Shown here in pieces: positions 4,052 through 29,690 of a stretch of DNA of 64,000 bases (within the stretch, counting starts at the first letter, position 1; each line of letters begins with the position of its first letter). The stretch covers positions 1 through 64,000 of the IMG/VR virus record IMGVR_UViG_3300028585_000019; one strand, given 5' to 3'. The notes under the pieces were generated by a model that was given only the letters and a program-made list of their open reading frames with translations, was not told the origin of the DNA and did no database searches. This DNA is from a virus. Position numbers and translations under genes: made by a program.

Positions 4052-4744
4052 ATGAACGATGAAGAACTAATTAAAAGCTTGAAGTGTACATGCAAAGAGA
4101 GGCTTGCAGAGGTTAAGTGGCACTCTGTTAGCTGCGAATATCGTATAGGTTGGGTGAAGAACAAGGACTCTTACTGGATGCCTCAAAGAGCTATTGACGC
4201 TGCAATTAAGCATCACAACCTAATAGCTGATAAACCATTTGTTTATATTGGTGATTCTGAAGCAGAGTTGGTTGATCGCCTGTCTATGAAGCACACAGAA
4301 TGGGTCTATAATTATGGAACACAACAAGACATCGAAGATGTTTACTACGAAGAATCTGGAGAAATTCCTGTAAAAGGAATAGATCATGAACGATATAAAC
4401 CAGAGCCTCCAGATAAAGACAGAGTCAAGGAGACCTTCAGTAGTTATATTTACATGGTATTTGTTGACGACCAATTGAAGTATATTGGTAAGGGTAAAGG
4501 AAGCAGATATAAACACCCTAACTCAGGGGCAAGCAGTGTTGTGGAATTGAACAGAGATTATTTTGAAGGTAGGAATATTGTTGTACGTTTTGCTAAGAAA
4601 GGTTTATCAGATCAAGCAGCAATCCTTCTAGAAAGAGATTTAATAGGTAGTTCCAAAAGATATGGAAGGCTTTATAACAAACAATATCCAATTCGCTACA
4701 ACTACATAAACATTGAGGAAGTATTATCAAAATTGATTGACTGA
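4052..4744 (+). CDS. GIY-YIG (LEM-3-like) nuclease domain protein
   Basis: YIYMVFVDDQLKYIGKGKGSRY ... LERDLI ... LYNKQ. Confidence 0.7.
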   Translation: MNDEELIKSLKCTCKERLAEVKWHSVSCEYRIGWVKNKDSYWMPQRAIDAAIKHHNLIADKPFVYIGDSEAELVDRLSMKHTEWVYNYGTQQDIEDVYYEESGEIPVKGIDHERYKPEPPDKDRVKETFSSYIYMVFVDDQLKYIGKGKGSRYKHPNSGASSVVELNRDYFEGRNIVVRFAKKGLSDQAAILLERDLIGSSKRYGRLYNKQYPIRYNYINIEEVLSKLID

Positions 4745-5554: not shown

Positions 5555-6670
5555 TTAAAGTGGCACAATTTCGATGTTAGTTACATCAATTCCTAGTCTT
5601 TCTAAGGTTTGCTTAAATGTAGTTTGCCAGCGAGCTTTCTTTGTATTAACAGCCTTCGGTACAAACCCATACTTAATCCACATATCCTTGACGAGCGTAA
5701 CCTCACCATTTAGAAGAACTTTACGAACCTTCTGTACAGGTAGTTTAACAGCATCTTCAAATGGCAGCTTATGTTTGGTCATATTCTCTTTTACACGAGT
5801 ATCACTTGTCTCATAATATGCAATCCACTCACAGCGTCGCTTAGAGACACCATCAATGATATATGTCTTCCGTGTATCTATTGGCTCGTGCTGATTAATT
5901 AAATATTTAAGCTCTACCAAACTGTTACCACACAACTCGATGTTATCTCTAACCCTTGCTATAACTACTCCAAGATAATCAGCTATCTCCTGTAGACTAG
6001 AGAACTGGTATCTGACACCACCAATACCTTGTAAGTCATACCCAGATCTGTAGTTAGATTCATAGAACATTGCAGCATAGATGTTATCAGAAGTAGAGTA
6101 CCTAATGTAAACTTTGTCATAATCTTTATTGAAGTGGTTACACAGATCAATGAGACGGTGTGTCTCTCCTTCCCATTCTACAGTTTTCTGGTGCCGAGAT
6201 TGAGCCCTTAGCTCTTCTAGTTGTTCTAGATCGTTTGTCAACTTTCTGTGTAAATATGCATAAGCATATGCAGGATTATTACCTTTGTAGAAGGTCTTTA
6301 CATGCACCCAAAACCCTTTATAAATAGCGTAATAGCTGGCTTCTGTATTTCTTTGGTTCATACTATTACAAACCCAACGTAGATTCTCTACCCTGTTATC
6401 AAACTTGTCTCGATTAATATGGTCTACTATTTTCATTTTAGGATCGTCTGGTTTAGGAATCCAAGATTGAGCAATTAATCTATGCAGACGATAGAGGCAT
6501 CTCTTGCCACCATCCGGAACTAAGTGAACGTAATAGTATTGGGGTATCCCGGATTTTGTTACTTTCTCGATCCTACCATCTGAGATTCGTTTAATGTTCC
6601 CCATGTTTGAAAATAAGTAATTAGTAAAACCTTCTAGCGGCTTCCATTCTTCTGTTGTTTCAGTTCCCAA
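5555..6670 (-). CDS. HNH homing endonuclease (NUMOD4 + HNH)
   Basis: EEWKPLEGF..Y.FSNMG (NUMOD4); HRLIA...VDHINRDKFDNRVENLRW; AGGAG RBS with TTG start. Confidence 0.85.
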   Translation of the reverse strand: MGTETTEEWKPLEGFTNYLFSNMGNIKRISDGRIEKVTKSGIPQYYYVHLVPDGGKRCLYRLHRLIAQSWIPKPDDPKMKIVDHINRDKFDNRVENLRWVCNSMNQRNTEASYYAIYKGFWVHVKTFYKGNNPAYAYAYLHRKLTNDLEQLEELRAQSRHQKTVEWEGETHRLIDLCNHFNKDYDKVYIRYSTSDNIYAAMFYESNYRSGYDLQGIGGVRYQFSSLQEIADYLGVVIARVRDNIELCGNSLVELKYLINQHEPIDTRKTYIIDGVSKRRCEWIAYYETSDTRVKENMTKHKLPFEDAVKLPVQKVRKVLLNGEVTLVKDMWIKYGFVPKAVNTKKARWQTTFKQTLERLGIDVTNIEIVPL

Positions 6671-27765: not shown

Positions 27766-27842
27766 GGAAAATAAGATGAATGACGAACATGATGATCTTT
27801 AAGCTATTGACAATAATAGAGAAACAATGTTAAAATGTACGC

Positions 27843-28010
27843 ATAAGGGAGAAGAAAAGATATGAGTATTCTCCCACGAATTCTAGAGCATTCTTCTCTG
27901 TTGATGTATTGATTAACTGCCCTCTCCTCAGTTAGTCAGGTGATGCAGAGAAGGAAGCCGCCCTTCCATGTGTTGTAGCGTAAGCTCCTGTGGAAAGGGT
28001 GTTTTATTTG
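27843..28010 (+). ncRNA. putative structured small RNA (about 165 nt)
   Basis: promoter TTGACA-N18-TAAAAT (27807-27836), several hairpins, terminal stem with T-tract, no substantial ORF. Confidence 0.45.
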
Positions 28011-28105: not shown

Positions 28106-28666
28106 TTGAAAGTCGCAAAGAACAATAGAGACGAAAAGATTGCCGTTGTTGAAGGAATTGCTGAGGGTAAGATTCTTGAAGAGGATGAGCTGATCAGTCT
28201 AGTCTTTGATAAAATTAGCAATGATAAAAGGCTTAAAGGTAGTAAAGGAAATTCTCCTTTTGCTGTAGGTACAAAAGCTTATAAACAAGCTACTGTAGAC
28301 TCGTATGAAAGGGCACTTGCTTCTGTACTTCTATACTCTTTCAAGCACGGTAAAAGTTCTTCTATAGGCTATCTCTATTTTATAGAGAGTAATAGTCACA
28401 AGGGGTATGTTAAGATTGGTTATTCTCAGGACGTAGAGACAAGATTGAATTCTTATCAGATTTGTTCACCGCATAGGGATTTTAGGGTAGTTAAGTATTT
28501 AATTCTAAAGCACCCAGCGCAAGCAGAAAAGGTAGCTCTAAATTTACTTTCCAGCAAATCTGTTGGAGGTGAGTGGATTAAAACAGACGATGCAGAAGAC
28601 GACTTTAAAACTGTTTGTAAATTTTTAGCTTCTATTGGTATTAAAAATAGATTTGCTTTTACTTAA
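28106..28666 (+). CDS. GIY-YIG / T5orf172 (MUG113)-domain protein
   Basis: GYLYFI....GYVKIGYS.D...RL..YQ..SP, AE...L, GEW. Confidence 0.75.
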   Translation: MKVAKNNRDEKIAVVEGIAEGKILEEDELISLVFDKISNDKRLKGSKGNSPFAVGTKAYKQATVDSYERALASVLLYSFKHGKSSSIGYLYFIESNSHKGYVKIGYSQDVETRLNSYQICSPHRDFRVVKYLILKHPAQAEKVALNLLSSKSVGGEWIKTDDAEDDFKTVCKFLASIGIKNRFAFT

Positions 28667-28670
28667 AAGT

Positions 28671-28747
28671 GCTCCGTTAGCTCAACTGGATAGAGCAGTA
28701 GTCCTCTAAACTATAGGTTAGAAGTTCAAATCTTCTACGGAGTTCCA
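28671..28747 (+). tRNA. tRNA-Arg(UCU) with encoded CCA and atypical C33
   Basis: cloverleaf: acceptor GCTCCGT/ACGGAGT, D arm GCTC/GAGC with A20, anticodon arm GTAGT-CCTCTAA-ACTAT, T arm AGAAG-TTCAAAT-CTTCT, TCCA. Confidence 0.85.
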
Positions 28748-29135
28748 AACACCACTCAATCGGGACGCTGATTGTTTAATTCCCTTTAAGGGGCTTGAAG
28801 CTGACAGACGTGTTAGTAATTCCTCGTAGACGGGTGTTGAACGGGGCAATGAATTTTACAGCGTAAGACGATGTGGATACTGGTTGTGTACTAGACCACC
28901 CACCTTTGGACGGATAAATGAGTACACTATTTATCGGAAGCGGCCTTAGAGATTAAAGCTTTAAGGACATTGGACATGAAGCGATTTGATTCGTTAACTA
29001 ACAATACCGTGCGACTTCCCTGTAATATGAAACATATCAAGCGCCTTGGAAGCAGAGCTATCTGTACTCCATTGATATGTCATAACAATAAATGACAACC
29101 AAATATTTGCCCCACCTTGTGTGGGGCTTTTTCTT
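28748..29135 (+). ncRNA. putative large structured ncRNA (about 380 nt) directly downstream of the tRNA
   Basis: about ten helices, pseudoknot, 7-bp loop-loop complementarity, terminator GCCCCAC-CTTGT-GTGGGGC-TTTTT; no ORF of 60 aa or more. Confidence 0.65.
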
Positions 29136-29234
29136 GCCTACAATAATAGAAACTGCCTATTAAAGCTTGACAATACATAGATAATCATGTTAATATTCTT
29201 TTATGTCCCGGAACAATAAAGCAGGAATGAAAGA

Positions 29235-29690
29235 ATGAGTGATGAAGATAATGATGTAAGTGAACCTCTCTACACAGAGAGCGGTAGGAAGTTACCAAGT
29301 ACAGCTTGGCCTAAAGGTCATTGTCCTAATAAAAAAGGACGGCCAAAAGCTGGCACAGAGAAGGCTAATGCAAAGCCTCGCAGTAAGATGCGTAACACTC
29401 TTAGTAAGCTTTATGAGCTTGAGCAAGTGGCTGCTGATGTAATTAAAGAGCATCTTGAGAATAAAGACAAAACTGTCGATCTGGATAAGAGTCGTCTTGA
29501 TGTTGCTAAGTTTGTTATCAAGGCAATTGAGTCTTACAACAATACATGTCTTCGTGAAGAGATGGCTATCCTCGGTATTCGCGAGAAGAATGAAAAGAAT
29601 GCTGATACTCTAGAAGAAAATCAATCTTTGGAAGCAGAAGCTCCTAAGAACTTTAGCATGGACTTGGTAGAAACTTCCCTTAAACATTGA
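29235..29690 (+). CDS. putative terminase small subunit
   Basis: WPKGHCPNKKGRPK (DUF5681-like motif), upstream of TerL, promoter TTGACA at about 29167. Confidence 0.6.
   Translation: MSDEDNDVSEPLYTESGRKLPSTAWPKGHCPNKKGRPKAGTEKANAKPRSKMRNTLSKLYELEQVAADVIKEHLENKDKTVDLDKSRLDVAKFVIKAIESYNNTCLREEMAILGIREKNEKNADTLEENQSLEAEAPKNFSMDLVETSLKH

Follow-up and report, generated by a model that had tools for sequence, protein, structure and literature searches.

A conserved 109-nt structured RNA module in tRNA operons of uncultured phages

A non-coding/tRNA operon in the window

The window (the whole stretch of DNA that was analysed, 64,000 nt) comprises positions 1–64,000 of the 90,974-bp IMG/VR record IMGVR_UViG_3300028585_000019. 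It carries an operon with a promoter, a conserved leader RNA, a second promoter, an ORF with a T5orf172 domain, a tRNA-Arg gene, a structured RNA module, an insert and a terminator, in this order. All window features described below are on the plus strand.

The non-coding/tRNA operon is headed by a sigma-70-like promoter at 27807–27836 (TTGACA, an 18-nt spacer and TAAAAT, with a TG; 11 of 12 matches). A leader RNA with a CCCTCTCCT loop follows at 27843–27966 (ends approximate), with nhmmer matches in four related loci, L039, L019, L017 and L016. In L039, a metagenome contig and the nearest relative, the operon promoter and leader are 91% identical to those of the window. Copies of the leader extend over 27807–27966 in the window (promoter included), 1381–1576 in L039, 3733–3871 in L019 and 1996–2178 in L017; the leader stands upstream of tRNAs in several relatives and is missing in the ‘majority’ group of phages carrying the module.

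The ORF at 28106–28666 (186 aa) has a T5orf172 domain (Pfam PF10544, 35.7 bits with a cut-off of 20; phrog_5032) and, judging from this domain, is probably a GIY-YIG-related, free-standing homing-type nuclease gene. When the protein was used as a query for related loci, no relatives were found; L039 lacks the ORF and has an unrelated 98-aa ORF in its place. The ORF sits between the leader RNA and the tRNA-Arg gene, in parallel to segB in the tRNA cluster of phage T4. By analogy, its position and the segB parallel suggest homing-type mobility of the tRNA region.

The tRNA-Arg(UCU) gene at 28671–28747, with CCA encoded, was identified by ARAGORN and by the Rfam tRNA model (61.3 bits); it is the sole tRNA that these two methods found in the window. 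It is immediately followed by the conserved structured RNA module at 28748–28856 (109 nt, ‘domain 1’ of an earlier, sequence-only reading), delimited by alignment with L039 and supported by covariance models, pair counts and RNAalifold. Then come a variable, lineage-specific insert at 28857–29029 (‘domain 2’), a 3′ hairpin region at 29030–29108 (‘domain 3’) common to very close relatives only, and an intrinsic terminator at 29109–29135 that ends the operon. The promoter of the next operon, at 29167–29196, sets the outer limit of the feature; it drives orf151 (29235–29690) and then the terminase genes.

The sequence-only reading had described the interval from the tRNA to a strong terminator as free of ORFs of 60 aa or more and as folded almost throughout into one large RNA. 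The first part holds: the largest ORFs in the interval have 41–43 aa, the terminator has a stem at 29109–29127 followed by a T run, and each helix that had been named is present in the sequence and correctly placed. What became of the single large RNA is considered below.

The terminator and the downstream TTGACA promoter ahead of an orf151 homologue are kept in L002, L017 and L020. The terminator/TTGACA junction occupies 29100–29200 in the window, 2820–2908 in L002 and 2256–2345 in L020; orf151 is a DUF5681-like gene. The gene upstream of this junction differs in the relatives: it is a long ORF, possibly a fibre or esterase gene.

Family and structure of the module

The first match to the module came from an nhmmer search over loci fetched via neighbouring genes: positions 28717–28863 aligned with the tRNA-Tyr/tRNA-Asn spacer of a 101-kb relative, and this spacer keeps every hairpin of the module through compensatory changes. 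A covariance model (R1) made from the copies of the window and of the 101-kb relative was used in a search that gave a third copy. Two degenerate patterns derived from the known copies led to further loci in IMG/VR and JGI metagenomes, all of which were confirmed by the covariance model with E values of 1e-13 to 1e-24. Models R1 and R2 match 15 distinct loci (E 1e-12 to 1e-35). The carriers are uncultured phages of ∼85–100 kb, and a sixteenth variant (X3) was found in contigs of a public run. Five complete or near-complete genomes (G000–G004) have one copy each.

Searches elsewhere gave little. Against GenBank phages (50,697 records), blastn with the window and majority versions gave tRNA matches only, or none. 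The pattern scan of bacterial and archaeal genomes gave 13 matches; the model confirmed none, and they were taken as chance. Public sequencing runs with the sequence were three DNA runs (two leaf-litter metagenomes and one described as ‘metagenome’) and no RNA run. By these sequence searches, the family is small and confined to uncultured phages.

A weak match (19.6 bits) at 5714–5794 of L012/L014 was not counted as a member, as 49 model positions are missing from it. In this segment, which lies upstream of tRNA-Asn, the loop of a 7-bp hairpin is GACG and a second loop contains GACG; the segment may be related to the module in a diverged or truncated form.

In the window the module contains five helices. 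Helix P1, a short helix that encloses the three hairpins H1, H2 and H3, pairs 28749–28753 with 28834–28838 and has an ACAC/GUGU core. Hairpins H1 (28757–28763 with 28768–28774) and H3 (28800–28806 with 28811–28817) have 7 bp each and GACG tetraloops at 28764–28767 and 28807–28810, respectively. Between them, H2 pairs 28781–28784 with 28790–28793 and has an outer extension (28777–28779 with 28795–28797). Helix P5 pairs 28822–28827 with 28841–28846; as the 3′ strand of P1 lies in the P5 loop, the two helices form a pseudoknot.

The four hairpins have standard pairs in 99.7% of the cells of the 15-sequence alignment. Compensatory double changes were found in 13 of 26 pairs, a number reached by none of 500 shuffles; counts of this kind are generous, since the alignment was fitted by the covariance model and represents only about four lineages (11 sequences are mutually 93–100% identical). 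In a slid control, with pairing partners moved by 1–3 columns, only 1–5 pairs had double changes and pairing fell to 31–55%. RNAalifold returned the same four hairpins, with the middle one extended and 15 of 29 pairs compensatory. The X3 variant is an independent addition: C is changed to G at 28782 and G to C at 28792, so that a C-G pair of H2 becomes G-C, and at 28803 in H3 a G.U pair becomes A-U.

The GACG tetraloops of H1 and H3 are invariant, while the closing pairs of both vary. The loop of H2 is variable (UUUAA, GUUAA, UAAAA, UUAAA or UUUAAA, and GAAA in the X3 variant). Invariant loops on covarying stems suggest that the two loops are recognised by a dimeric or two-site partner.

P5 has double changes in two pairs, and its sixth pair is C-G, A-U, U-G or U-A. 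In P1 the ACAC/GUGU core is invariant; the fifth pair is C-G in the window lineage, A-U in ten other sequences and mismatched in three. We therefore consider the P1/P5 pseudoknot likely rather than proven, given that P1 is mostly invariant, with one covarying pair and three mismatched sequences. Among the elements drawn for domain 1 from the letters of the window, covariation in the 15 loci supports the crossing CCTCGT/ACGGGG helix, the three hairpins and the GACG loops that two of them have in common.

The strand of the RNA, assigned earlier from G-U pairs, is borne out by the alignment. U.G or G.U pairs are fixed at three positions in 13–15 sequences, which implies that the module RNA is on the plus strand, i.e. 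the strand of the tRNA.

Folding energies of the whole interval 28748–29135 point to the same strand (z −2.60 on plus and −0.88 on minus). The plus strand folds at −108.2 kcal/mol, and none of 100 shuffles was as good, so that the comparison with shuffled controls, proposed with the sequence-only reading, came out in its favour. For the module alone the folding signal is marginal (z −1.65, 13 of 200 shuffles as good). On the evolutionary evidence, i.e. covariation and conservation in the alignment, we conclude that 28748–28856 is a previously undescribed folded RNA.

Limits of the conserved unit and comparison with known RNAs

The nearest relatives set the 3′ limit of the conserved unit. The module of L039 is 95–96% identical to that of the window, and homology runs exactly from 28748 to 28856; in L039 the module is followed by ∼85 unrelated nucleotides, and then by a common 14-nt motif, other hairpins and a terminator. 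In an X3 contig the counterpart of 28849 is joined to that of 29030 via 62 unrelated nucleotides, and a second X3 contig has 29030–29155 with three differences. Comparison of 28850–29108 with all fetched loci by nhmmer and blastn gave no homologue.

Since both closest relatives have other sequence in its place, domain 2 is dispensable, and so are its closing helix and its 7-bp kissing loop. The two complementary loops of the proposed kissing interaction do exist in the window; they lie in the replaced insert. By the same comparison, 28857–29029 is best described as a lineage-specific, dispensable insert. The helices of domain 3 are also present, and are known only from near-identical copies, L039 having different hairpins; Rfam matches to this domain are sub-threshold and of the sRNA-tail kind. 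The sequence comparisons thus reduce the conserved unit to 109 nt, the remaining ∼270 nt being lineage-specific filler and the terminator. The ‘380-nt ornate RNA with a kissing loop’ is, with this correction, mostly non-conserved sequence.

The interval downstream of the module still folds well. Positions 28857–29105 have a z of −2.14 (4 of 200 shuffles as good) on the plus strand only, and the unrelated 170 nt that follow the module in L039 are predicted to form a closed multi-branch fold (z −3.79). A structured variable arm may therefore follow the module, according to these predictions for the two lineages, with no comparative support. Such an arm would be expected if the interval were one 388-nt multi-domain RNA, at least in the lineage of the window, L039 and X3, with a conserved 5′ core, a hypervariable arm and a 3′ domain; the common 14-nt motif, the hairpins and the terminator with which both the window and L039 lineages end fit this explanation too. 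We nevertheless find it unlikely: domain 2 has neither sequence conservation nor covariation, its size is 62, ∼85 or 173 nt, and in other lineages a tRNA or an ORF comes after the module. The description of the interval as a single ∼380-nt GOLLD/ROOL-like RNA accordingly gives way to a 109-nt module, a variable insert and a terminator.

The opposite explanation, that we are dealing with chance structure or with decayed sequence, for instance the remains of a tRNA or of another gene, could apply to 28857–29029 only, which is without any homologue and varies between close relatives. For the module it is excluded by covariation and by conservation across distant phages, and there is no tRNA or Rfam signal in it; overall we give this explanation very little credence.

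In a search of the window with Rfam 15, the gathering score was reached by the tRNA alone. Nothing was found over 28779–28874 at E ≤ 10, and the L039 and L042 homologues were also without a match. The Rfam families covered include GOLLD, ROOL, HEARO, tRNA-like RNAs and riboswitches; among ribozymes, the hatchet, pistol, twister, twister-sister, HDV-like and hammerhead families of Rfam 15 have no match on the module. Matches from 28875 on were sub-threshold only, most of them to terminator-type sRNA tails (29025–29134). A CRISPR-DR32 match on the minus strand at 28742–28778 (16.8 bits, E 8.2) was taken as chance. The earlier proposal, a new phage RNA whose fold is real and includes a pseudoknot, thus stands for the 109-nt module, which has covariation and is not in Rfam, the pseudoknot being graded as likely.

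Several other identities were considered and rejected. The module is not a tRNA or tRNA pseudogene: its arms of 7, 4 and 7 bp end in tetraloops, or in a loop of 4–6 nt in H2. Nor is H2 an anticodon arm, as its loop varies in length and sequence. A hammerhead-like CUGACGA motif, noticed by eye, is absent from the window version and its bases are paired. A riboswitch was ruled out, since what lies downstream of the module is a tRNA, an ORF, 200–400 nt of non-coding sequence or the end of the operon. An antitoxin RNA of type III (ToxI-like) was ruled out by the single copy per genome and the varying neighbour genes.

The sequence-only reading had counted about eight GGA motifs and, on that count, had put forward a decoy for RsmA/CsrA as a possibility. 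The count of 8 is correct and the motif is not enriched (7.4 in shuffles, P 0.47). Within 28857–29105 there are 7 GGA versus 3.75 in shuffles (P 0.017), most of them predicted to be paired; the module has one GGA, which is missing from most homologues. We do not retain the decoy idea, nor a sponge RNA of the RsmY, RsmZ or CsrB type, as the motifs are not enriched and are mostly predicted to be paired, and that of the module is not conserved.

GOLLD and ROOL are often phage-borne, lie near tRNAs and have no known function; the module is alike in setting. They differ in size, 500–800 nt versus the conserved 109 nt of the module, which has no Rfam match to them at E ≤ 10.

A closer parallel in setting is phage T4, in which the gene order is segB (a GIY-YIG homing endonuclease), tRNA-Arg, rnaD (119 nt) and rnaC (139 nt). 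RNAs C and D of T4 are transcribed from the tRNA region, and their roles are unknown (PMC3014915; PMC9697503). Like the module they are non-coding, have a length of ∼110–140 nt and are situated in a tRNA cluster, directly downstream of tRNA-Arg and after a GIY-YIG-type gene. In a search of the 70.5–72.7 kb region of T4 by model R2 with filters off, the best match had 7 bits (E 0.41) and lay off rnaC and rnaD. Inspection by eye shows a terminal CCA in T4 RNA D and a tRNA-like T-arm close to the 3′ end of T4 RNA C; the module has neither, while the twin GACG tetraloops and the pseudoknot are features of the module. We take the module to be analogous, not homologous, to RNAs C and D, the likeness being one of setting, and, from the sequence comparisons, to represent a new family among the small RNAs of phage tRNA clusters. 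Such clusters have had unexplained small RNAs since the T4 era; the module would add a second case, unrelated to the first though alike in gene order.

In Escherichia coli, the 3′ external transcribed spacer of glyW-cysT-leuZ is a by-product of a tRNA precursor that sponges sRNAs in trans. In the reading preferred below, the module would likewise derive from a tRNA precursor and act in trans. The tRNA-spacer RNAs of E. coli have short single-stranded pairing sites, whereas the module is compact and highly paired, with conserved loops.

Genomic setting, distribution and possible role

The module is always on the tRNA strand, in the promoter-proximal non-coding/tRNA operon, and its position within the operon varies. 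Its 5′ end directly follows the tRNA CCA in the window and in L019. The 3′ tail abuts the 5′ end of tRNA-Gly or tRNA-Asn in five loci (L026, L030, L038, L040 and L019). In L033, L041 and L034 the module is 140–400 nt upstream of a tRNA; in L039 and L034 it comes right after the stop codon of an ORF, and in L017 an RBS is located 27 nt downstream of it. A promoter (TTGACA, a 17-nt spacer and CATTAT) lies ∼50 nt upstream of the module in L026. Fusion to the 3′ end of a tRNA, part of the earlier description, is therefore real in the window and in L019; it does not define the module, which elsewhere follows an ORF or non-coding sequence or precedes a tRNA.

The junctions are exact: CCA/module, stop codon/module, module/tRNA 5′ end, and module plus 27 nt plus RBS. 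Such precision would fit a cis-acting processing or stability element that steers or blocks RNase E or RNase P cuts, or shields its neighbours from exonucleases, as would the single copy per operon and the adjoining ORFs in L039, L034 and L017. The module would then be punctuation of a polycistronic transcript and have no function once released. A mere barrier, however, would not require that two tetraloops stay invariant and the junction strands stay conserved in phages whose large terminases (TerL) are 40% identical; moreover, the position of the module relative to tRNAs is not fixed, and other tRNA spacers in the same arrays have unrelated sequences. A cis-acting role is possible, in our judgement, though on the unlikely side.

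A second role in cis would be that of a processive antiterminator. The put RNA of phage HK022 acts as nascent RNA, has two hairpins and lies downstream of a phage promoter, and its likeness to the module is an idea only; twin hairpins would bind the transcribing RNA polymerase, which would then read through terminators of the operon. The module does have two hairpins with a conserved loop, and it is promoter-proximal, on the sense strand, single-copy and upstream of terminators in every locus. Yet any element of an operon has terminators downstream, and the module has no similarity to put: it has four hairpins and a pseudoknot, and may sit at the end of an operon. Such is its place in the window and in L039: only the final terminator, and then an operon with its own promoter, lie beyond it. 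We regard antitermination as quite improbable.

The distribution of the module is patchy. The nearest cultured phages by large terminase infect Pseudomonas (76 and 66% identity), and with model R2 at E ≤ 1 the module is absent from vB_PsaM_M1, phiPMW and SYP. At the same E value it is absent from the genomes G005, G007 and G008 and from the 81%-complete G009; G006 has only a 13.8-bit match (E 0.23), and the G007 lineage has a weak truncated look-alike. TerL identity to the window is 75–77% for G005–G007 and vB_PsaM_M1, 68% for G008, and 66% for phiPMW and SYP. By contrast, G003 and G004, with TerL 40% identical to that of the window, carry the module. By these comparisons, the module carriers do not form a clade.

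The compared genomes have 34–76 ORFs in common with the window genome at a median identity of ∼40%. The module of the window is 56–69% identical to those of other lineages, and that of G002 is 81% identical to the version of the majority group, which points to strong constraint, exchange between phages, or both. In either case, very divergent phages have retained the module or passed it on among themselves. The patchy spread over lineages with TerL identity of 40% suggests that the module moves between genomes with the tRNA region, and the neighbouring homing-nuclease-type genes might help this movement.

Phyletic profiling of the 513 ORFs of at least 45 aa in the window genome against four carrier and six non-carrier genomes gave no ORF that occurred in three or four of the carriers and in no more than one non-carrier. 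Since no ORF co-occurs with the module, a dedicated phage protein partner is unlikely and a host factor becomes the candidate target.

In the reading that we prefer, the module is a small stable RNA cut from a tRNA precursor, which is released and acts in trans on a host factor. It would be co-transcribed with the tRNAs from the upstream sigma-70-type promoter and excised by the tRNA-processing nucleases of the host: RNase P would cut between the 3′ tail of the module and a tRNA that directly follows it, whereas behind a tRNA the 5′ end of the module, at CCA|AACAC, would be made by RNase E or by 3′ trimming. The positions of the junctions fit release by this machinery. The product would be a stable RNA of ∼110 nt, as T4 RNAs C and D are, and would act in trans by presenting the twin GACG hairpins to the host factor. 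We estimate that this reading, built on genomic comparison, has about an even chance of being right.

A more specific idea sees in the module an RNA-only device, exchanged horizontally, that serves the phage as a counter-measure or for hijacking: a compact pseudoknotted decoy that captures a dimeric host factor by its twin GACG hairpins, the factor being perhaps a defence nuclease directed at tRNAs or an enzyme of RNA processing. If true, this would explain why the module travels with phage tRNA genes across phages with TerL identity of 40% and has no accompanying phage protein; at present we see it as a long shot. In a still rarer variant, the RNA would cleave itself at its 5′ edge (CCA/AACAC or UGA/AACAC) and represent a new class of ribozyme that matures the upstream RNA.

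The module has clear covariation and a pseudoknot, its two invariant loops give a handle for mutation, and it is a compact object for asking what non-tRNA RNAs do in phage tRNA operons.

Other non-coding segments were noticed near the tRNAs. In L040, L029, L036 and L038, a second conserved non-coding block lies ∼60–200 nt upstream of the module; shared by several phages of the majority group, it extends approximately from ...GAAAGGTCAGAACACCACTGACGG... to ...GGTCTGTCGCTGACACAGC and is possibly a further RNA element of the operon. In L019 the spacers of the tRNA array at 4204–4324, 4401–4539 and 4614–4702 look structured, with tRNA-like pieces visible by eye (a T-arm-like GGGGTTCGATCCCC and a closing helix of 7 bp that resembles an acceptor stem) but no ARAGORN call; these spacers may be degenerate tRNAs or further small RNAs. 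Among the cultured relatives, phiPMW (L062, 2104–4319) and SYP (L063, 577–2696) have genes for a polynucleotide kinase/phosphatase and an RNA ligase near their tRNA arrays, which constitute a T4-like tRNA-repair set.
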